NCBI RefSeq assembly: GCF_009834535.1
Contig: NC_045696.1
Location: forward strand, 24,554,001-24,618,000
Reading direction: 5' to 3'
Origin: Camelus ferus
Taxonomy: Eukaryota
Length of the DNA: 64,000 nt
The notes below the pieces were generated by a model. The model had not been told where the DNA came from. It made no database searches and saw nothing but the letters and a program-made list of their open reading frames with translations. How positions within the stretch are numbered: position 1 is the first letter of the stretch; each line of letters begins with the position of its first letter. Positions 1 through 60,089 of the stretch are shown piece after piece. A program made the position numbers and the translations under genes.

Positions 1-950
1 AAAGAAAACCAATTCAGGACACGGCAATAGTTTCAATGAGAGAAAATTAAACTAGGGTGGTAACAATGGGAATAGATAAAAAAGAAACAGATTCAAGACA
101 CATTTTAGAGAATAGCCCAAACTCAGTTAAGGAATAAATATAAGTAAACAAAGGAGAGGTAAATGGCAAAGGTGGACTGTGCAGCAGGGTAAATAAAGAT
201 GATGTTCTTCATCTTGAGTTTAAGAAGACCAGATGAGAATCGTGTTGGGGCAGGGGTGGTGTTCAGAAGCCAGTCTGATCATGTTTACACATCGTTTTAA
301 GTAGGTAGTTGGATATGTGAGTCTGAATCTCTGAAGAAAGCCCTAGAGAAATAAATTGGGAATCATCTAAATATAAATGGTATTAAAAGCCGTGTGTGTG
401 CACGTGTGCATGTGTGTGCGTGCACGTGTGTGTGTGTGTGTGTGTGTGTAGATGAGGAAAAAAATGATGGTAATATTAGATGAGAACTCAGAGTTAGTTC
501 TAAAGGAATTTAAGCATTTAATTTGAGAGAAAAGGAGGTATCAGCATGTAAGAGAGAAAGAACAACCAAAAAAGGTGAAAAGAAAACCAGGAACATGATG
601 TCACAGAAGCCAAGAAAAGAGTTTCCTAAAGGTCATCATGGTCAATATTGCTAAATATCAAGTAGTAAAGGAGTCTGAGGATGGTTCACTGGACCACAAA
701 AGCAATTTAAATGGAAAGGTAGAGACAAAAATTGATTGATGAGTACATGAGGTGGGTTGAAAGGACAAGAAACTTAAAAGATTAAATTAAAAGAAACAAA
801 CACAGTTAACATTTTGTGAGAATCATGCCTGGGAAAGGAGTAGAAAGAGTGGTTAATAAAAGATAGTGAATTAAAGATAGATGAGATCAGAGCATGTTTG
901 AAGGCTACTGGGAAAAGTCCTTTAAGGGAAGATGATCAAAATTCAGTAAG
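1..950 (-). mobile_element. Degenerate LINE-2 fragment(s), interrupted by a TG microsatellite
   Basis: Purine-rich decayed sequence with L2-like segments such as gtaggtagttggatatgtgagtctgaa and tgatgtcacagaagccaag; recognised from memory of L2. Confidence 0.55.
392..449. repeat. Imperfect (TG)n microsatellite
   Basis: gtgtgtgtgcacgtgtgcatgtgtgtgcgtgcacgtgtgtgtgtgtgtg... seen directly. Confidence 0.95.
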
Positions 951-974
951 GAGGGAAGATGAATAAACTTGTAA

Positions 975-1580
975 ATCAAGTTCTGTCACTCCCCTGATTA
1001 GAATAAACTACATATTCCTCAGCCTGCTCTATAAAAGCCTCCTTGAAAACTCCTAGTTAAATCTCTGGCCTAATCTCATGCCACTCTTCCATTCTTTCTC
1101 TTCCCTGGGCATTCACTAAGAATTCTTCCAGGAATTCTAGCTTCAGAACTTTTTACAGGCTGAATCCCCTTCCTTCTGCTATTTTCCTGGCTGACTCATC
1201 TCTGTCATTCAAGTCTTAGTTGAAATGTTCTTTCTGACGATCCAGTGGACCAAAAACCATCTCCAAATTTTCACATGTCTGGTTCTTTCTTGTCATTCAA
1301 GCTTCAGTTTCAGTATCCTCAGTGAAGCCCCTCTTGATCACCAAATGTAAATTAGTAACACTCTCATCCCCACTCCATCACCCTGTTCATTCTTAGTACA
1401 GTACTTCTTATGCCACATTTTCTTGTTTATGTACTTGTTTATATGTTTATGGTATGTCGCTTCTCTCTGGAATGTAGACAATGAAAGCAGGGAGCTCATC
1501 TTACTTGCTCAACACCATATTCCCAGAATGTGGGATAGTGCTTGGCACACAGTAGGTGCTCAATAAAAGTCTGTTGATTG
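975..1580 (+). mobile_element. LINE-2 3' end
   Basis: Ends in the typical L2 tail gtgcttggcacacagtaggtgctcaataaa...tgttgattg. Confidence 0.8.
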
Positions 1581-3956
1581 GTCAAATGGTAAGTTTAATT
1601 TACATGTCAGTTTTCTTTATTTTATTTTTTTCTCTTTTATTTATATAGGTCAGTTTTCTTAGAAAATGTCTAGAAATTAAAAGGCACATTATTAAAAATT
1701 TTAATCAAATTCAGTACAAGTATACAGGTAACAGATTAGGGGATAGTAGTAAATAACATTATTATTTTAAAATATTATAGAAGATTTCTTTTTAATAGAT
1801 AATCTTAATGATTCTATATCTCTTATAATAATGTTAACTCTAACTTTCATCTGTCAGGTGTATACGACCTAATAGTAAGAAAAGGTTTTTTCAGAAGTTC
1901 TTTGCTATTAGAAAGTAGTCAATCTAATATAAACAATTCACTATGGACAATCCATTTGGTAGATAAAACATACGTTTGAAATCAAAAGTGTATTTACATT
2001 CTGCAAACATTGATTAAGTCATGCACTATCTGAGGCATATAGGATTCAAAAATGAGTAAAATGCAACAGACCGATCTCACTAATAATTCAAAGGTAAGTG
2101 AGTGAATAAAGACACAAAAGTTAACAATACTGTGCTTTAAAGAGGCTATCATAGTATGAACAAAATAATGAGGCGTCAGTTTGTTTTTACACCTCTGGGC
2201 CACGAGACCTCACTCATCTGAATTTAGGCACTCAAACGCTTCCATTCCTCCTAGGGGCAAATTGTTAATAAGAAGTTCAGTTACCCTGGTGTCTAACACC
2301 TTTCCCCAAGTCAAATGAAAGTCTTTTTCACAAAGAAGGGGGAGACAGAAGGTTATTTCTGATGCCAGTGTTTCAATGGAGAAATTAAGCTTTGCCTGTA
2401 AGAGACAGAGGTTGCCATAAGAAAAGCAGCACAATAACAAAAAATACTGTGCTCAATGCTTGTGCAATGCCAGCTCATTATTTCTGGAAGGGGCTAAAGA
2501 TTAGAAAATGACTTTTCCTGAGTTGCAACAGGCCTGTAACTGAGTAACTCGGAAAGGACTGAAAAGGAATACCAGGAAAAATAATACAAAAATAAATAGC
2601 AGTAGAAATTGTGTTGAGCTGAGCATGACCTTTGGAAAGAGAAGGAAGATTTTGCATATCTAAGAAAATCTCATCACAGTCCTCTCTGAAAGATTAAAAT
2701 GATTTCAATATTTTTCCATTTATTTAATGCAAACAGGTATAGCTTGTTCTGACAAAATGTCACATTTCCTACTCAGGTACTATTATGTGGAGACAGAACA
2801 TCAAGTTGATATTGGTTGTTCAAAGTCATTCTTAAAGACAAAGAATAAGAACTAAATATAATAATTGGAAATGTTTGCATTATGTTTTTCTTCCAAACAT
2901 TTCTTTGGGCTTATAGTCTCTGTCAAAGATCAGAAACACTGTTATAAATACGTCTCATTCAAACATTAATATGGAAGCAAATCATTCACCTTTTGAAAAT
3001 TGCAGTATCTACTTAGATGTCATTTATCAGAACGAGGCAGAAGCAGGTGGAGAAATACTTCTGAATCCTGAGCTTTCTGGATGAAAAAGAACTATTCCTC
3101 TATGTATTACTTCTCATCTTGTTAATACAACAGAATACAACTATTTTACCAATTAGCATAACATTTAACACATAAAGTGTTAATTTCCAAAATATTTTGA
3201 AATATTCTTTAAGAAAGCTATCTTAACAATAACAATTAAAAGCAGTATAAATACAAGTTTGTCAACATTAAGCTACTGGGAAATAATTCTCTATCTTCCA
3301 AAAGAACTTTGAGTCATTAATGTAATGCTAATTTTTTATCGATATTTTTTGCCACAATATATACTTATATACTAAAACATAATATAGAATGCTGTGGCTG
3401 TGTTTTGCTTTTCTCAATGTGTATCTTCAAGAAAGAAAGAGCCTATTCAAGGAAAAGTATATTATTGGAAAAATGTTTTACTTGAAATAAAATGCTGTTT
3501 TACCAGAAATTTCCAAAAGGAAAATGAAGAAAATCTGAATTCTACTTTTTCTTGAACACCATCAGTCTATTCCAACACACGCAAGTAGCAACTTTAAATT
3601 TCTTGTTTCATCTATGTTACGCTGCAAGGAGACTTGTTCCTTTCCACTATTTCACAGTGAGCAGGAGTGCCTCATTTATAGATGGCTCTGGATTCAATCC
3701 ACTTTGCTGCATTTTGAAGTAAAAAGAAAAAAACTTGGTTAAAATATGCTCTGCTTTAGTGTGCCTGGCCAGCTGTAATGTATTTTCCAAGTACTGAACC
3801 CCAAAAGAGCAGTGTGCTTTCAAGTTACTGTTTAAATTGTCTCAGGCTGCAAGTTAAGGTCATGTTAATTTTCCTACATTTATGATCTTGACACATTTTA
3901 TATTTAACCTTTTGTGGAGAATAATTTGTCCTCACCCTGAGTTGTGTTTGTGCTAG

Positions 3957-4084
3957 ACCATGAAGCCAGGTGGTGACCCAGCTGGAATCCACGGGGACAT
4001 TAAAGAGACTACAGAAGCTGGTCTGGACCAAGAAAGCCAGGGTGCCGAGTCTGAATGAGATGAAACCCACGTTAACGAATCTCC
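3957..4084 (+). CDS. SAMSN1: Putative upstream coding exon A of a long SAMSN1 isoform (SASH1-like); start may instead be 3970
   Basis: Acceptor gtttgtgctag at 3955-3956, donor C|GTAAGT at 4085. Frame 3970-4084 reads VVTQLESTGTLKRLQKLVWTKKARVPSLNEMKPTLTNL plus 1 nt, resembling SASH1 [28 protein letters not shown] (recalled). The phase-1 end matches the phase-1 start of the exon at 5261. Confidence 0.7.
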
Positions 4085-5260
4085 GTAAGTAAGAACTCAA
4101 TGAGCTGATAAAATGTTTTGAGGAAGAGTTGGTGTAGCATATATTAATGAAGGACATTTTAATAAGACCCTAAAATAATCATTGCCAAGTAATTTGTGAA
4201 ACAACTATCAGTAGACTGTTCCTGAATTTCACCTTACATCCCTGCCCTACCCCGTTTCTCCTTTGCCTCAGAACCAGACTCAGGGGTAGAGTAAGAGAAA
4301 GCTGTGGGTGAAGCTCAGCAAGAGAATGAGGGTCAGATTTCCCACTGTTCTCAGCCTGTGGCCATAGAAAACAGTGTAATTCAGTTGTGATGTGAGTGCA
4401 GGTAATTGGCATGTCGTGACATGCAACTTTGATTTTCATTTATTTACTTACAAGAATGCCCTGTTAATCATAAACTTTGTTTACATCAGCTAAATATTTG
4501 AACTTAAATGGATTCAGTGATATGGTACAATTTACTGTGGGTCATATATATTTCTATTTTCTGTAATGGTTTTATATATTACTGGAAATTTCATCAGATC
4601 CTTCACTGCATGCAAATATACATCTCACTAATCAACTTCATAGTACTGAAGATAAACCTTTTTCTTTTGTTTTCTCAGCCTTATTCTTATCTTTCCAAAA
4701 TATTTCCCTATGAGAGCCACTACATGCATAAATCTTTTTGCAGACTGATGTTAAAATAGAGAATTTAAGGATACCAAAAGTATTTCAGGAAATCTCTACT
4801 GAGATTTCATCCTGCTAAGTAAGGTAAAGATTTGACTTGCTTCTGATGCTTTCTTATACACATGACCTCAAAAAATTCAAAATATTCAAGAATAGAAACA
4901 CACCATATTCTTATAACATGTGGGGAATTTTTTTTAAATTTGTATTTCTTCTTAAATATCTTTCAGTACACTATTTGCATGTGGCTCCCAGTCATTTCAG
5001 TCAAACTGACTTTATCATTACATATGCTTCCAAAATTTTTAGGTGAATCTGTTTTTACAAAACAGATCACTTAATAAACTAAGAACTTACTCTTTAAAGA
5101 AATGTTGTTGTAAATTATTTTGTGAAAGTATACGATCTCCTGGTTTATCCTGTGATGTTCACTCATTTCTATTATGTAAGAAGAATTATAATATTTATAA
5201 TTTCTACATATGCAAAATTATTGGACTGACTTATCTCAACTTATTTTCTACATCATTCAG

Positions 5261-5613
5261 AAGATGAAGATGAAACATTGATTTCCTGTATGAAATTAGT
5301 CAAATCCCAAGAAAAGAAAGCTAATAATATTAGCCAAAAGAGTACAGAAGAAAGGGAGATTAGATTGGATTCTATTTCTGCACCACTGGTTAGATCCAGT
5401 ACTTCAACTGGATGCAGCTTGGCAGAAATGTTATCTCACAACGAAGGTGAAGTTCATATGTGGAACAGCTGGAAGCAGTTTCCAGAAAACCCGCTGTGGG
5501 CATATGTTGATTTCCAAATTGACCAAGTTGGAGCCTGGGACCCCTGTTTCCACTGCTGTCACCACACACGTCTCAAGTCGTCTTGTACAGATACAGATCT
5601 CCCACATTCATGG
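5261..5613 (+). CDS. SAMSN1: Upstream alternative coding exon B of SAMSN1 (long isoform)
   Basis: Branch-like ctgac at 5226, pyrimidine tract and cag acceptor at 5258-5260, donor TGG|GTAAGT at 5614. Open frame DEDETLISCMKLVK...REIRLDSISAPLVRSST...FPENPLW...HTRLKSSCTDTDLPHSW resembles the recalled alternative N-terminus of human SAMSN1 (MEIRLD...LLHSW). Ends in phase 0, compatible with exon 2. Confidence 0.85.
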
Positions 5614-5939
5614 GTAAGTTCTTAACTACGGAAATGTATCGTCTTATCTGGATGTTTGTACTAGCAAGAAGGAAACAGGTAACAGATGTGCTAATCAGTC
5701 AAATTTATCAGTTTTAGGAAAGTTACCAGAGCTAGAGATGTCTTTCTAAAAAGCGATGCAGCTCTCGTGATTTCTGCTATCATGTTACTATTGCATGTGT
5801 TCCTTTGCGTTCAGGTAAACTACTGTATAAGATTTTCCAGGGATTTCTTTTTAATTAAAGGAAGATAGTGCATGTTGATTCAGGTCAAGATGTGCATTGA
5901 ATTGTCTAAATTATTTCTGTTGTCTTGAAGTTTCACTGA

Positions 5940-6175
5940 CAAATAATAGCTAATTTAAATGAGCATTTTCTTTGTGCATGCTATTCTTCTACGCACTTTA
6001 CATGTATTATTATTTAAATCTCACAACACCCTAAAGGAAGGGAGTGTTATCTTAATAGTAATTCCGCTCTGTTTTACAATTGAGAAAAATGAGGTGCAAA
6101 AAAGTAACAGGTACAATGTTACAGATCTAGCGAGAAGTAGAGCCAAGATCTAGAACCTAGACAGCCTTATGCTAG
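5940..6175 (-). mobile_element. MIR SINE
   Basis: aataatagctaat...atttaaatctcacaacacccta...ttttacaattgagaaaaatgaggtgca, the MIR core in reverse orientation. Confidence 0.8.
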
Positions 6176-6237
6176 GGATCCTGATTTTAGCTGATACATT
6201 ATAGTGTTTCCCATACACTAAGCTAGGCTCTAAGGCT

Positions 6238-6440
6238 ACATGGCATGAGAGAAAGAGCATGGATCTAGAGTAGTTAGAGAAATTTGGGTTTGAATCCAAG
6301 TTCTGCTACTTGTTTAGCTCGAGCAAATTATCAAAACCTTTTAATCTTGCTTTTCTCCATTGTAAAAATGAAAATAGTAACGTTAAACTTGTGAGGTAAT
6401 TGGAAAATTAAAATTAAATAACACAAAGATACTAGCATTC
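6238..6440 (+). mobile_element. MIR SINE
   Basis: gaaagagcatggatctagag...tgggtttgaatccaagttctgctact...ttctccattgtaaaaatgaaaatagtaac. Confidence 0.75.
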
Positions 6441-27296: not shown

Positions 27297-29193
27297 TTTT
27301 TTAATTGAAAGATTCTTTAAATTCTATAGTTTACAGTTTTCAAAAGTTTCATATCCATAATTTCATAACAACCTTTTTAATCCCCCTATTTTTATATTGC
27401 CCCTTCCCTTTTCCCTCTCCCCACTGGTAACCACTAGTTTATTCTCTGTATCTGTGAATCTGCTTCTTTCTTGTTATATTCACTAGTTTGTTGTGTGTTT
27501 TTAGATTGCACATATAAGTGATATCATACAGTATTTGTCTTTCTCTATCTGATTTATTTCACTTTGCATCATGCCCTCCAAATCTGCCCTTGCTGCTGCA
27601 AATGGAAAATTTTCATTCTTTTTATGGCTGAGTAATATTCCATTGGTATATATACCACATCTTTAGGCATTCATCTGTTGATGGACACTTAGGTTGCTTC
27701 CATACCTTGGTGATTGTAAATAATGCTGTTATGAACACTGGGGTACATATATCTTTTCAAATCAGTTTTTTTCCCCATATATATACCCAGGAATGGAATT
27801 GCTGGGACATACTTTAGTTTTTTGAGAAACTTCCACACTGTTTTCCACAGTGACTACATCAATTTACATTACCATCAACAGTATACAAGGGTTCCTTTTT
27901 TTTCATATCCTTGCCAACCTTTGTTATTTGTGTTCTTTTTCATGATAGCCATTCTGACAGGTGTGAAAATCTCACTGTGATTTTGACTTGCATTTCCGTG
28001 ATCATTAGTTATGTTGAGCATCTTTTCATGTGCCTATTGGCCATCCACATTTCTACTTTGGAAAAATGTCTATTCAGTTCTTCTGCCCATTTTTTAATCT
28101 TTTTTTTTATATTGAGTTGTATGAGCTGTTTATAAATTTTGGATATTAACCCCTTATAGGTCATATCAATTGCAAATACCTTCTCCCATTCAGTAGGTTG
28201 TCTTTTCATTTTGTTGATGTTTTCCTTTGCATGTTCAAAAGTTTTTAAGGTCCCATTTGTTTATTCTTGCTTTTGTTTTCTTTACTGTAGGAGATGGATC
28301 CAAAAAATATTGCTATGATTTATGTCAAAGAGTGTTTTGCCTGTGTTTTCCTCTAGGAGTTATATGGTTTCTGGTCTTACATTTAGGTCTTTATCCATTT
28401 TGAGTTTATTTTTGTATATGGTGTTAGAAAACATTCTAATTTCATTCTTTTACAAGCAGCTGTCCAGTTTTCCCAGCACCGCTTATTGAGGAGACTGCCT
28501 TTTCTCCATTGTATATTCTTGTCCCCTTTGTTGAAGATTAATTGACAATAAGTGTGTGGGTTTATCTCTAGCCTCTCTATTTTGATCCATTGACATATGT
28601 GTTTGTTTTGTGCCAGTACCATCCTATTTTTATTACTGTAGCTTTGTAGTACAGTCTGAAGCCAGGGAGTGTGATTCTTCCAGCTCTGCTCTTCTTTCTC
28701 AAGATTGTTTTGGCTATTTGGGGTCTTTTGTGTTTCCATACAAATGTTTTCATTATTCATTCCAGTTCTGTGAAAAATACCATTGGTATTTTCATAGAGA
28801 TTGCATTGAATCGTGCCTTGGGTAGTATGGTCATTTTAATTATATTAATTCTTCCAATCCAAGAACACAGTATGCCTTACCATCTGTTTGCGTTGTCTTC
28901 AATTTCTTTCATAAGTGTCTTATAGTTTTCTGAGTATGGGTCTTTTACCTCCATAGGTAGGTTTATTCCTAGGTATTTTATCCTTTTTGATGTGATGGTA
29001 AATGGGATTGTTTCCTTAATTTTTCTTTCTTATAGTTCATTTTTAGTGTATGGAAATGCAACAGATTTCTGTTTATTAATTTTGTATTCTGCAATTTTAC
29101 CAAATTCATTGATGAGCTCTAGTAGTTTTCTGGTGGTATCTTTAGGATTTTCTATGTATAGTATCATGCCATCTGCACACAGTGACAGTTTTA
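27297..29193 (-). mobile_element. 5'-truncated LINE-1 (3' UTR plus ORF2 C-terminal part), degenerate
   Basis: Minus-strand ORF pieces [13 protein letters not shown]...[12 protein letters not shown] and [34 protein letters not shown] are L1 ORF2p; stops and frameshifts present. Confidence 0.95.
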
Positions 29194-35763: not shown

Positions 35764-35820
35764 ATGCTGAAGAGAAAGCCATCCAATGTTTCAGAGAAGG
35801 AGAAACATCAAAAACCAAAG
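35764..35820 (+). CDS. SAMSN1: SAMSN1 (HACS1/SLy2) exon 1 coding part
   Basis: ATG in context AAAATGC; encodes MLKRKPSNVSEKEKHQKPK, matching the recalled human SAMSN1 N-terminus; donor AAG|GTAAGG at 35821; phase 0. Confidence 0.96.
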
Positions 35821-51026: not shown

Positions 51027-52873
51027 TTTTTTTTCTGAGTTTGTTTTTGAAGTACAGTTGATCTACAACACTATGTTAATTACTGGAGCACAACATAATG
51101 ATTTCATATTTCTATATATTTCCAAATGGTCAATATGATAAGTATAGCTAGTTACCATTTGTCACCATACAAAGATACTATATTATTATTGACTACAGTC
51201 CCCACACTGCACATTTCATACTCACGAATCATTTATTTGTTAACTGTAAGTCTGTACCTCTTAATCATCCTCACCTATTTCCCTCTCCCTGCCCCCTGGC
51301 AACCACCTGTTTGTTGTCTGTATTACGACTGTTTCTGTTTTGTTGTTTGTTTGTTTGTTTGTTTTAGATTCCACATATAAGTGAAATCGTACAGTATTTG
51401 TCCTTCTCTGTCTGACTTATTTCAGTTAATAAAATATCCTCTAGGTTCATCCATGTTGTCACAAATGGCAAGATTTCATTCTTTTTTATTCCACTGTGTA
51501 TATACACATCTTCTTTATTCATTCATCTATGGATGTGCACTTCAGTTGCTTCCATATCTTGGTTATTGTGAACAATGCTGCAATGAACTAAGGGGTGCAT
51601 ATATACTTTTGAATTAGTGTTTTTGTTTTCTCTGTATAAAAAACAGGAATGAAATTGCTGGATTGCATGGTAGTTTTATTTTTTAATTTTTTTGAAGAAA
51701 CTCCATTCTGTTTTCCACAGTGGCTACACCAGTTTACATTCCCACTAACAGTACACAATTTCTCCAAATTTTTGCCAACACTTGTTATTTGTTGCCTTTT
51801 TGATAACAGTCATTTGACAGGTATGAGTTGATATCTCATTGTGGTTTTGATGATTAGTGATGTTGAGCATTTTTTCATATACCTGTTGGCCATCTGTATA
51901 TCTTCTTTGGAAAAATATCTACTCAGGTCCTCTGCCCACTTTTTAATTAGGTTGTTTTTTTCTGATGCTGAGTTGTATGAGTTTATTGTATATTTCTAAC
52001 ATTAATCTCTTTTCAGCTATATCATTGGAAAATATCTTCTTCCATTTAGTAGGCAGATTTTTCTCATTTTGTTGATAATTTCCTTTGCTGTGCAAGAGCT
52101 TTTTAGTTTGGTGTAGTCCCATTTATTTATTTTTGCTTTTGTTTCCCTTGCCTGAAGAGACAATCCTCCAAAAAATGTTGCTAAGTTCAGTGTCAAAGAA
52201 CATACTGCCTATGATTTCTGCCAGGAGTTTTATGGTATCAGGTCTTACATTTAAGCCTTTAATACATTTTGAGTTTATTTTTGCACGTGGTGTGAGAAAG
52301 TAATCCAGCTTGATTCTTTGGTATGTAGCTTTCGGGTATTCCAACACCATTTATTGAAGAAGCTGTCTTTTCTCCACTGTATATTCTTGCTTCCTTTGCT
52401 GGAGATTGACCATATACACATGGGTATATTTCTGAGCTGTCTATTCTGTTCCATTGATCTATGTGTCTGTTTTTGTGTCTGTACCATACTATTTTGATTA
52501 CTGTCGCTTTATACTACAGTTTGGAATCAGGGTGAGTAATAATTTCAGCTTTGTTCTTTTTTCTCAAGATTGTTTTGGCTATTCTAGGTCTTTTGTGTTT
52601 CTATACAAATTTTAGAATTAGTTGTTCTAGTTATGTAAAAAAAAATGCCTTTGGTATTCTGATAGGGATTGCATTGAATCTACAGATTGCCTTGGGTAGT
52701 ATGGTCATTTTAACAATATTAATTCTTCCAATCCATGAGCACAGTATAGCTTCCCATTTGTTAGTGTCATCTTCAATTTCTTTCATGAGTGACTTAGTCT
52801 TCTGAGTACATATCTTTACTTAGTTAGATTTATTCCTAGGTATTTTATTCTTTTTAATGCAATTATAAATGGG
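51027..52873 (-). mobile_element. 5'-truncated LINE-1 (3' UTR plus ORF2 C-terminal part), probably nested in an older L1M fragment (~50540-53580)
   Basis: Minus-strand peptides [16 protein letters not shown] and [30 protein letters not shown] are L1 ORF2p; similar to the copy at 27.3-29.2 kb. Confidence 0.93.
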
Positions 52874-55800
52874 TTAAAATGTGTCTATTTTTTTGGTCCT
52901 TTGAACAATAAATTACTGTTTCTTTTTTGATTGCTTAAAATAATTCTTCTTTCTAAGCCACCAATTCAATACGAAATTAGATGCATTATTTTTATTTGGA
53001 ATTGTTAGGGATTGCTTTCATTTTTATTTAATTTAGTTTATAAATATTTTTAGAAGTTATGTGGTTTTAAAGTCAAATCTACAAAACAAGGTCTATTCAG
53101 AGAAGTCTGTTTTCTCTTATGTCCCTTTCACTTTGCTTATTTTACCCCATTTCTCTAAGAAGAAAAACATGTATCTGCCTGTTTTGAGACACACATGTAT
53201 TTCCACCCTTAGATAAATGGCAGCCTATTGTGTACATTTTTCTCTACTTGGCTTTTTTTATTTACACTTTATCCGGGAGATCATTCCATGGCATTATAAA
53301 GAGATATATTTCACTTTTTTACAGATGTAGACATCTCTATTGTCTGAATTTACCATATATTATTCAATCTGTTTTCTCTGGATCAATGTTGGGGTTTACA
53401 GCTGTTCAATAATACAAAAGATTTACAACAAACATGAATGTATAAATCAATTTAGATTTAGTGTATCTCTGATATAGATGTCTAGAAATGGAATTTTTGG
53501 GTCAAAGGGCAAATACATGTAATTTTGCTGGTTTTGTCAAATTACCTTCCACATGTGTTGTGCCATTTTACAAACACATTTGACTGCACAAGGGAAGACT
53601 ATAGGTTTATATGAAATATCGTTAAAGAGTAAATATGATCTAATGTCAACAAAAACAAAGAATTATCTAAAATATGAATTGCATTTTTATTTAAGATACT
53701 TTTTTGCTGTTAGTTATTTGTTTATATAATAGTTCTTTCTTGATGGGAGCTCTGTCACAAAATGATATTGCTAAATCTAATCCATTACAATTATACAGCG
53801 GAAAATTATCAATATTCAAACACATTCTCACTTACAAAGGACGTCCTATCATCAATAAAACCAACTTATCTCCACATGATTCACCTTTTCATTAGAAACT
53901 TAATGAGTCGAAATTACACATTTGTTCATTGTCCATACCTCATAATAGACATTAGCCCTTTTTCATCATAAGCCATAACCTATATATTATGAAACCATTT
54001 CAGAAAGTCACTAACTTTTTGACTAGAGAATAATGAAATTTTAAAATCATATTTTAACTACTTAGATTTGCTTCTTAAGGGTGTCTTAGCACAGACTGAT
54101 ATTCTACTCCTCTGGCTTAAAGCTGTTGAGTGATTTGTAATGAGATGACTGACAAAACCCAAAGTAATAGTCTTGAAAACCACTACTCCTAAATCTGCTT
54201 CTCTTTATTGATACAATGAGGAGAGAATTAATTTTAAAAGGTGATGACTATTGATTACTTAATGGCAGAAGATAGTGTAGAGAAATGCTGAAGTGAGCCT
54301 ATTCTCTGCCCTCCTGGACAACATGACCCATTATCCAGTGGTGGAAATCATGCTGTAACCCTCATTAATATTTAGCAGGCAGGACATAGGCTGGTGGTAG
54401 TCTACAAAATTGCCCTAGGCATAACTCCAAAAGGGCATAAGAATGTTTGAAGGATATAAAAGAGTAACAGATTTCCCTGTGTTCAGATTGTTTATAAGCA
54501 GGACAAGAAAACACTCAATTCCCTTTTGTGATCTCCGGGCAACGATGGCCAGGTGGAAACACCTACTAGGCAAGTTGAAGTGATTAATGCTCTGGGAAAT
54601 CACTCTAGGTTAGTGAGCCCTGTATAAGGACACTGTATTTTCCAAAGTGGTTCTCAATTTCAGTCCTTTTTCTTTCCTCTTGCCTCAAGTTTAAGGGCTT
54701 TTTCCGCAGGGGTAGAAAGTCAGCAAAAGGTGTTAATTGTGTCTAACACAGCCACCATCCTTGGGGCGACGTTCTGTATCACACTGTCTATCAAGCTAAC
54801 CCCTTGTCACATGTCAGGATCTTTTTATTTCAGCTCATTTAAAAGGGAAACAAGAAGTTTTAAAGATAGCTAGTAGGGAGACACGAGGATAAGAATGCTT
54901 GTAAGGACTAAAAGAGCTTTTGAAGCCACTTGAACTAAAATGGTCTCTGACTGTTGAAAAGACCATACAGAGTTTTATAGATTACTGACTCCCATTTTCA
55001 GCTTTTCAGACTACTAAGTTCTTTTTCAGTATCACCAGCTTATTTTGAAAATATTATAGGTTTGAAATAAGATAAAGTTCTTACAATAGAAAATATTCTT
55101 GGGATTTATGGGTACAGAAAGTCCATAATGTCTGATATCCACCATCCTGAATGGTATATAAAATTAAACAGTGAGAAAATATCAATTTTTTTGACTCAAC
55201 TACTCTAAAGATTTTGAAAACGAAAACTACTCTAAAGATTTAGGAGAATCATTTACTTTGTGGTATGTGAGGAATTGTTTATAATTACCTGGCTAGAATG
55301 AGTTACATACAAATAAAAATTTAGCTTTGTAGGCAAAAAGTATCCAAGAGAACAAGTCTTCTACTACCATATTAAGCTTTCTCTCAAAACCAGTGAATGA
55401 AATTGACCCAGAGGTCTCATTGTAATTCCATGTTAAATGTGGAAAAAAATCAGTTTTACTTTCAACCTTAGACTGTGAATGCCTAAATGCTCTTTTCCGT
55501 TTATTAATAGGTCTGTGTATATGCCTCGTCTTTCTGACATCTAGTAGAGAGGTTCATATTATCAAGAGTTACCAACAGAAAATGCATTGGCGGTCATTTT
55601 TGGTTTTTTGACAAATATGATCTTTATGAGACACAATGGTGGATCTACTCAAATGCCTGTTTTTGTTTGTTTGTTTTGCTGTTGTTATTTATTAGTTGGT
55701 TGGTTGCTTAGTAATATATGCCATTCCCAAGAACAAAAGTAACACTATAAATTAAAAATAATTTAATAGATTTTTCTCCAAGGTGCTTAACATGATAACA

Positions 55801-56011: not shown

Positions 56012-56083
56012 CGCAGCAGCAGTTTTGGGAATTTTGATCGTTTTCGGAGTAATTCCACATCAAAACCAGATGACCCAACTGGG
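56012..56083 (+). CDS. SAMSN1: SAMSN1 exon 2
   Basis: Strong pyrimidine tract and tag acceptor (AG at 56010-56011); 72 nt encoding RSSSFGNFDRFRSNSTSKPDDPTG; donor GGG|GTTGGT; phase 0/0. Confidence 0.96.
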
Positions 56084-59939: not shown

Positions 59940-60089
59940 GTACATGAAGGGGAACCTATAAATGAAAGTGGAGAACAAAACAAAACTTCAAATAATGGAA
60001 GGGGCTTAGGTAAAAAAATGAGAGCTATTTCCTGGACAATGAAGAAAAAAACGGGTAAAAAATACATTAAAGCCCTCTCTGAGGAAAAG
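59940..60089 (+). CDS. SAMSN1: SAMSN1 exon 3 (SLY region, basic NLS-like segment)
   Basis: Acceptor tgattag; 150 nt encoding VHEGEPINESGEQNKTSNNGRGLGKKMRAISWTMKKKTGKKYIKALSEEK; donor AAG|GTAAGT at 60090; phase 0/0. Confidence 0.97.

Follow-up and report, generated by a model that had tools for sequence, protein, structure and literature searches.

An ancient coding exon of long SAMSN1 at a camel locus, and the probable remote kinship of its protein extension with SASH1

The segment at the start of the window (the whole stretch of 64,000 nucleotides of Camelus ferus DNA analysed here) that we call exon A is a real and very old coding exon, belonging to a long isoform of SAMSN1 that is already in public gene catalogues. 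A sequence-only reading of the window had proposed a hidden, SASH1-like coding exon of an N-terminally extended SAMSN1. Orthologous long models from sharks to mammals bear out the conserved coding exon; the word 'hidden' has to be dropped, since the exon is already present in the curated human records NP_001382786.1 and NP_001382787.1 and in the camel record XP_045376767.1. The exon borders, the orthologous models and one RNA junction are direct evidence. Taken as a whole, the best explanation, and one that we consider likely to be right, is that long SAMSN1, of ~670 aa, has in exon A an ordinary internal coding exon, conserved across jawed vertebrates.

In the proposed mechanism transcription would begin at a promoter upstream of the window, and the upstream exons of the transcript would be spliced to exon A in phase 0; exon A would be joined to the next exon (exon B) and this to exon 2, passing over the canonical first exon. 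The short protein of 373 aa would come from an internal first exon at 35.8 kb. The ~315-aa extension of the long form would be disordered and derived from an ancestral N-terminal region in common with SASH1, with exon A giving its one conserved basic amphipathic helix, and the long form would be a SASH1-like scaffold bearing additional N-terminal motifs on the same SPIDER-SH3-SAM core.

Exon structure and the doubled base in the assembly

The window holds the 5′ part of SAMSN1, with 96-100% identity to Camelus proteins, and of the genomic exons common to the long and short forms it carries the first two only. In the SAMSN1 proteins P0001 and P0014 the SPIDER (PF12485), SH3 and SAM domains all score above the curated cut-off, which places these proteins in the SLy/SASH1 adaptor family. 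Pfam assigns the exon-A peptide to no family and gives exon B just a chance match (E 0.059). Minus-strand frames at 28383-28835 and ~52030-52135 read like what we take to be LINE-1 ORF2 remnants. Coordinates of the features are collected in Table 1.

Table 1. Features of the SAMSN1 locus, in positions of the window
Feature	Position	Strand	Evidence
Second doubled site, T and A side by side, intronic	3792..3793	+	X1 lacks 3792 (T), X2 lacks 3793 (A)
3′ splice site region of exon A, ending in TAG, 10/17 pyrimidines	3926..3956	+	sequence
Exon A, internal coding exon of long SAMSN1	3957..4084	+	protein models; RNA junction at 3′ end
Doubled site, C and T side by side, shifting the frame	3982..3983	+	base 3982 absent in 2/2 DNA runs; Val in Bactrian camel, Ala in dromedary
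Conserved core GTLKRLQKLVWTKKAR (GTLKRLQKLV), predicted basic amphipathic helix, putative counterpart of SASH1 KRLHKLV/NLS1	3994..4041	+	column conservation, predicted structure, profiles
Phase-1 intron, GT..AG, 1176 nt	4085..5260	+	sequence; skipped by one RNA contig of X18
Exon B, 353 nt, phase 1 in, phase 0 out	5261..5613	+	sequence, protein models, X18 RNA pieces
First coding exon of the canonical short isoform (MLKRKPSNVSEKEKHQKPK), within an intron of the long form	35764..35820	+	19/19 identical to protein P0249
Exon 2, common to both forms (RSSSFG..., start of SPIDER region)	56012..56083	+	sequence, protein models
Exon 3, common to both forms	59940..60089	+	sequence, protein models

Exon A is entered in phase 0 and left in phase 1, and measures 128 nt in the window or 127 nt without the extra base treated below. 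With a slash marking the splice, its acceptor reads TAG/ACC at 3956/3957 and its donor CTCC/GTAAGT, the GTAAGT lying at 4085-4090. The join to exon B is in frame through a split codon (C+AA = Gln), reading QDEDETLIS, and the phase-0 end of exon B fits exon 2 in the reading W/RSSSFG. The sequence-only reading had given this donor, the phase-1 end, the Gln join to 5261 and the in-frame step to exon 2, and all of these follow from the sequence. Its open frame stands from 3964 onward and fails from the acceptor, where TGA at 3961-3963 falls four bases into the exon; its first residues, 'QL', are a product of the extra base at 3982/3983. Orthologues differ there, reading TMKPGGDPVES in the Bactrian camel and TMKPGGDPAEP in the dromedary, and the frame that they use at the acceptor (TMKPGGDP) meets TGA at 4056-4058 in the window. 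Among alternative acceptors, 3920 and 3942 retain the stop and 3966 gives the wrong phase; the candidates 3970 and 3982 restore phase 0 but are weak, with 7 and 6 pyrimidines of 17.

Read evidence came from four of 24 listed sequencing runs, compared over 3400-6400: two DNA runs (X1 and X2) and two RNA-type runs (X17 and X18). The runs were used as Logan contigs, which lose rare alleles, and the window may or may not derive from one of the two DNA runs. The junction 4084>5261, which had been named as a check on exon A, is present in one contig of X18, an RNA-Seq run and one of the two RNA-type runs, with the GT..AG intron of 1176 nt removed; it is in no contig of the two DNA runs. The contig is 151 nt long at depth 2, with 26 nt on its short side. 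X18 also has exon B pieces at 5261-5385 and 5452-5602, as well as intronic pieces, including one at 3794-3931 upstream of the acceptor, which may be DNA or unspliced RNA. X17 has intronic pieces only and is uninformative for splicing. The single X18 contig supports the junction; it is thin evidence, mute on level, tissue range and the 5′ partner of exon A.

Each of the DNA runs spans the whole of 3400-6400 in a single contig, and without base 3982, which both lack, the reading becomes PVES, as in the Bactrian model, in an exon of 127 nt. An open frame from the exon-A acceptor is absent from the window as written, and present in both DNA runs and in both camel models. At this site the Bactrian model has a Val codon and the dromedary model an Ala codon (the latter deduced from the protein only). 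Given the dromedary Ala, the C and T of the window look like two alleles of a single site set in tandem, and 3982/3983 are most likely both alleles of a Val/Ala polymorphism. A like doubling at 3792/3793 is resolved one way by each DNA run, and the loose end of an X18 piece fits the X2 allele there. Because base 3982 is missing in both DNA runs and the doubling recurs at 3792/3793, we read the frameshift of the window as, very probably, an assembly artefact at a polymorphic site. No RNA contig of X17 or X18 covers the acceptor at 3957 or base 3982.

The other explanation is that the extra base is a real loss-of-function allele of the animal or its lineage, the long isoform being broken here or rescued through the AG at 3970 or 3982. 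The window itself does carry the shift, and these two AG sites would give back phase 0, yet their pyrimidine content makes them poor acceptors. Six mammalian models lack exon A, and the wild-camel catalogue has the upstream exons as a separate partial protein of 80 aa, each of which could reflect relaxed constraint or merely broken assemblies; two Met codons kept by most relatives are also gone in camels. Set against these points are the absence of the base from both DNA runs, the repeated doubling pattern and the in-frame Bactrian and dromedary models, and we regard a real lesion as very unlikely.

With an assembly artefact as the preferred reading, exon A is a clean example of a tandem-allele error that fakes a gene break. 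Polymorphic sites seem to be written as one-base insertions at 3792-3793 and 3982-3983, and also at 6364; other frameshifts in this Camelus ferus genome may share the artefact.

The long isoform across vertebrates and its alternative starts

When the 40-aa exon-A peptide was used as query, 16 of 22 candidates matched at E<=0.01, the best being 97% identical. Thirteen of the 16 are named SAMSN1 at their source and the rest are unnamed or hypothetical; most are long SAMSN1 models, 577-738 aa in length. A query of residues 1-316 of the marmoset long form gave 90 matches among 864 candidates, whose named sources are placental mammals, marsupials, platypus, birds, crocodilians, turtles, lizards, amphibians, one teleost and two sharks. 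Human isoforms 6 (NP_001382786.1, 669 aa) and 7 (NP_001382787.1, 701 aa), where the NP_ prefix denotes a curated record, contain the exon in frame, as does the Bactrian camel model XP_045376767.1 (669 aa). In the annotated long isoforms the exon-A peptide is followed by QDEDE, and the reading continues across exon B to RSSSFG. Nothing in the window matches residues 1-155 of the camel and human long forms, and tblastn with the upstream exons of the long form, which encode MNLFCFSL...SYQ, found nothing in 1-3956; at least several exons therefore lie upstream, as the sequence-only reading had expected.

Among 132 SAMSN1-side proteins the exon-A core pattern occurs in 86; 11 have exon B without the pattern, and the 35 others are short or partial. 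Two of the 11 are core variants, three start later and six skip exon A. Mean column conservation over 65 sequences is 0.88 in the core (residues 73-90 of P0001), 0.64 in exon B and 0.54 in the upstream part. Two models splice an upstream exon straight to RSSSFG, so exons A and B together form a phase-0 module.

The skipping models (P0024-P0027, P0036 and P0039) are from two hyenas, two seals, a jackal and a sac-winged bat, and five of them also lack part of the preceding segment; this is either lineage-specific decay or an artefact of the models. Elsewhere in the extension, the N-terminus MNLFCFSLEGSMDSLYEP is nearly invariant from sharks to human, and the N-terminal 18 residues are the best conserved of the extension, with no Pfam family. 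The motif SMDSLY occurs twice in long SAMSN1 (residues 11-16 and ~421-426 of P0014), at the N-terminus and in the SPIDER region.

Translation of the short isoform starts at the ATG of MLKRKP at 35764, 31.8 kb from exon A, in agreement with the distance of ~32 kb given before. In primates exon B contains the start of a 441-aa isoform, presumably the one encoded by the transcript SAMSN1-001 (ENST00000285670); that Met (MEIRL, ~5353-5358) is Arg in camels. Camels have also lost the Met of ESMGT, with Thr (ACG) at 3991-3993; their ATG at 3960 (A at -3) is absent in the other mammals aligned. With one Met gained and two lost, a transcript started at exon A would use another start in camels than in human. 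A stretch at 54553-54618, just 5′ of exon 2, matches 16 of 22 residues of an alternative first exon of a squirrel-monkey SAMSN1 model, the Met position being Val.

Human and mouse SAMSN1 have two promoters, upstream and downstream, according to the available text of PMC4198825. This published downstream promoter, together with the short form's own downstream first exon, upholds the earlier proposal that the short protein comes from an internal promoter. The forward primer given there for the upstream promoter fits the C>T-converted sequence of the window perfectly at 3926 (0 of 26 mismatches; 4 at the next best site), and the reverse primer fits best at 4293 with 6 of 27. As the forward primer matches the exon A acceptor, the exon has been under study as a promoter since 2014 (PMC4198825, available text). 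The downstream-promoter primers given in that text have no clear site in the window (7 of 30 and 6 of 25 mismatches at best).

Exon A might then be, in mammals, mainly a first exon at the 'upstream promoter', leading to a 441-aa or slightly longer protein, with the full 670-aa form rare. The two promoters and the position of the forward primer speak for this, as do the commonness of 441-aa models and the X18 piece at 3794-3931, which lies 5′ of the acceptor, although that piece may equally be DNA or unspliced RNA. However, human and camel share a conserved acceptor region, exon A continues the frame of conserved upstream exons in species from sharks to human, and the Met of the 441-aa form is missing in camels; furthermore, every myeloma line tested showed high methylation of the upstream promoter, in the available account of PMC4198825. 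A mainly first-exon role appears unlikely to us. Promoter use and internal-exon use of exon A are not mutually exclusive, and we keep the internal coding exon as the preferred reading.

Relation to SASH1

The SASH1 set contained 120 proteins, mostly teleost with a few from birds and none mammalian, and its members are close relatives, not independent samples. The KRLHKL motif was known before the profile tests were done. BLASTP of a bird long SAMSN1 against bird SASH1 gives an alignment from residue 64 across the core, including ESMGTLKRLQKLV. A profile of the SAMSN1 extension was made from 65 sequences, cut before RxSFG, and compared with 114 distinct SASH1 N-terminal pieces and 720 shuffled or reversed decoys. 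On the SASH1 pieces it reached 25.8 bits (median 11.4), with the best domain on KRLHKL in 113 of the 114, against a decoy maximum of 7.2. The exon-A profile alone reached 10.5 bits (median 4.1; decoy maximum 6.4), and on full-length SASH1 its best match was at KRLHKL in 120 of 120 proteins, with a best off-motif score of -1.0. Using hhalign, an upstream block of 38 columns scored 45.1 (probability 78.5; maximum of 40 decoys, 20.9) and the exon-A block of 19 columns scored 32.4 (probability 44.1; maximum of 40 decoys, 16.9).

Single N-terminal pairs of SAMSN1 and SASH1 were compared with 300 shuffles each. The score was reached 0 times for a bird and for an unnamed protein and once for a shark, so that the bird and shark pairs are significant; pairs with P0281, camel and human were not significant, with 21, 76 and 100 of 300 shuffles reaching the score. 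A possible third block, P0281 305-332 versus SASH1 P0105 297-324, is likewise not significant alone (21/300 shuffles). A three-sequence profile searched against 1.84 billion proteins gave 42 matches, none of them SASH1-like, the last (P0288) being an unrelated repeat protein.

The spacing of KRL and RxSFG is 145 residues in the SAMSN1 of both camel and human, as it is in one bird SASH1; a bird SAMSN1 has 153 and bowfin SASH1 has 159. SASH1 isoforms break just before SREQS (extra segment in 67/120, none in 53/120) and just after SHG; these break points correspond to where exon A begins and exon B ends, so that two of three borders agree. Pike SASH1 reads EDIGTFRRLHKLV, intermediate between the SAMSN1 and SASH1 forms.

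Against common descent one may set convergence, with a short basic helix arising twice and the SAMSN1 extension of separate origin. This would account for the mammalian pairs, which are not significant, for the whole-library search without SASH1 and for the absence of any profile match of exon B to SASH1, and basic low-complexity stretches do raise scores, with a bias of 7-12 bits in the top alignments. It fits less well with two separate collinear blocks above decoys, with equal spacing to the common core and agreeing isoform break points, with the intermediate pike sequence and with the paralogy of the two genes over SPIDER-SH3-SAM, and we consider it improbable. Collinear blocks above decoys, taken with the paralogous cores, make common descent likely but remote: to judge from the alignments, the ~315-aa extension of SAMSN1 and the N-terminal region of SASH1 probably go back to a common ancestral region. 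Of the SASH1-like extension first proposed, what stands is the alignment of the core with SASH1 KRLHKLV; the likeness is confined to two or three short blocks, and mammalian pairs on their own do not reach significance.

Taking this common origin further, we lean slightly towards an ancestral SAMSN1 product that was a SASH1-like scaffold of ~670 aa, present from sharks to human, whose disordered extension shares SASH1 motifs, including a counterpart of NLS1; the 373-aa immune protein would be a derived form made from an internal promoter.

Two side observations concern the same region. The 3′ end of exon B (5580-5613; SSCTDxDL, RSATDxDL in relatives) resembles SASH1 RSLTDGEM just before SPIDER, and this is the possible third block given above. 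Most fish and bird SASH1 models (P0098-P0215) begin with an extra SAM domain, and some are named SAMD5 in UniRef, which suggests that SAMD5 serves as a first exon of SASH1 in these animals.

The core helix and comparison with known systems

AlphaFold2, run with an alignment of 26 sequences, gives a disordered extension in which the sole helix of residues 1-307 is 169-179 (TLKRLQKLVWT), at pLDDT ~50. In the predicted helix the leucines lie on one face, with basic residues around them. Motifs that fold on binding are typically built in this way, and on this model the exon-A helix is somewhat more probably than otherwise a short docking or targeting motif of that kind.

A classical bipartite nuclear localization signal has two basic residues, 10 spacer residues and at least three basic residues among the next five. 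The last five of 17 residues hold three basic ones in SASH1 (mean 3.0) and a mean of 0.4 in SAMSN1 (65 sequences). SAMSN1 keeps KR and the hydrophobic pattern, with KK closer to KR, and across the 65 sequences its core does not show the classical pattern; with the second basic cluster out of register, it is not a classical bipartite signal. The bird SASH1 segment that contains KRLHKL maps to ~258-261 onward (by offset from the SPIDER and SH3 borders, an indirect placement), and NLS1 of SASH1 is residues 259-275 in Table 3 of the available part of PMC13467429. Mutation of NLS1 or NLS2 stops import of an N-terminal SASH1 fragment, according to the accessible text of PMC6251370. By analogy with the matching NLS1, nuclear import is the leading specific candidate for the exon-A helix, though a tentative one. 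In order of preference, the model thus puts a docking helix first and a variant import signal second.

We take AF165138.7 to be an old name of the SAMSN1 upstream exons, and records called 'putative uncharacterized protein ENSP00000383407' cluster with SAMSN1, in line with this. AF165138.7 is listed as a separate human gene near SAMSN1 in the available part of PMC3262805. SAMSN1 is presented as a protein of 373 aa in the searchable papers, among them a 2026 review (PMC13467429, in the part available) whose Figure 2 legend calls an extended N-terminal region a distinguishing feature of SASH1, and the word 'isoform' is not used in the available text of PMC7666139. We found no description of the long SAMSN1 isoform or its SASH1 likeness in the searchable literature, which mostly excludes subscription papers (e.g. 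Jaufmann et al. 2021) and supplements; the SASH1 link seems to be absent from searchable papers. As the exon and the isoform are already in curated catalogues, their discovery value is low, and what may be new is the reading of long SAMSN1 as SASH1-related, not the exon itself. If that reading is true, an extension held to be unique to SASH1 is a family feature, and SAMSN1 work in brain, tumours and knock-out mice may have confused two differently targeted proteins. Should the long form be made as protein, its conserved motif could be put to the test as a guide to the N-terminal part of SASH1, which is uncharacterised, and there would be cause to ask again which SAMSN1 form disease studies had measured or deleted.

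Compared with known long models, the gene in the window has the same exon and the same junctions (NL/QDEDE and SW/RSSSFG) as human isoforms 6 and 7 and camel XP_045376767.1 and XP_031313730.2, the Bactrian and human isoform 6 proteins being of equal length, 669 aa; it differs from the human and camel long models by the one additional base at 3982/3983. Compared with SAMSN1-001 (ENST00000285670) as studied by Noll et al. 2014, the 'upstream promoter' amplicon falls on exon A, and the available text of PMC4198825 regards as a promoter the locus that we describe as an internal coding exon.

Compared with SASH1, SAMSN1 is alike in the KRLxKLV helix motif, which lies ~145 residues before RxSFG and follows an acidic stretch, in the upstream K-S-I-x-K-S-x-S-E ... 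W-Q block and in the SPIDER-SH3-SAM core. Identity between the two is low outside the short blocks. SAMSN1 lacks an RRVRKK cluster in register and a recognisable SDEERIQLMMM segment, both found in SASH1, as well as the second SAM domain and long C-terminal linker of SASH1, and it has its own start, MNLFCFSLEGSMDSLYEP.
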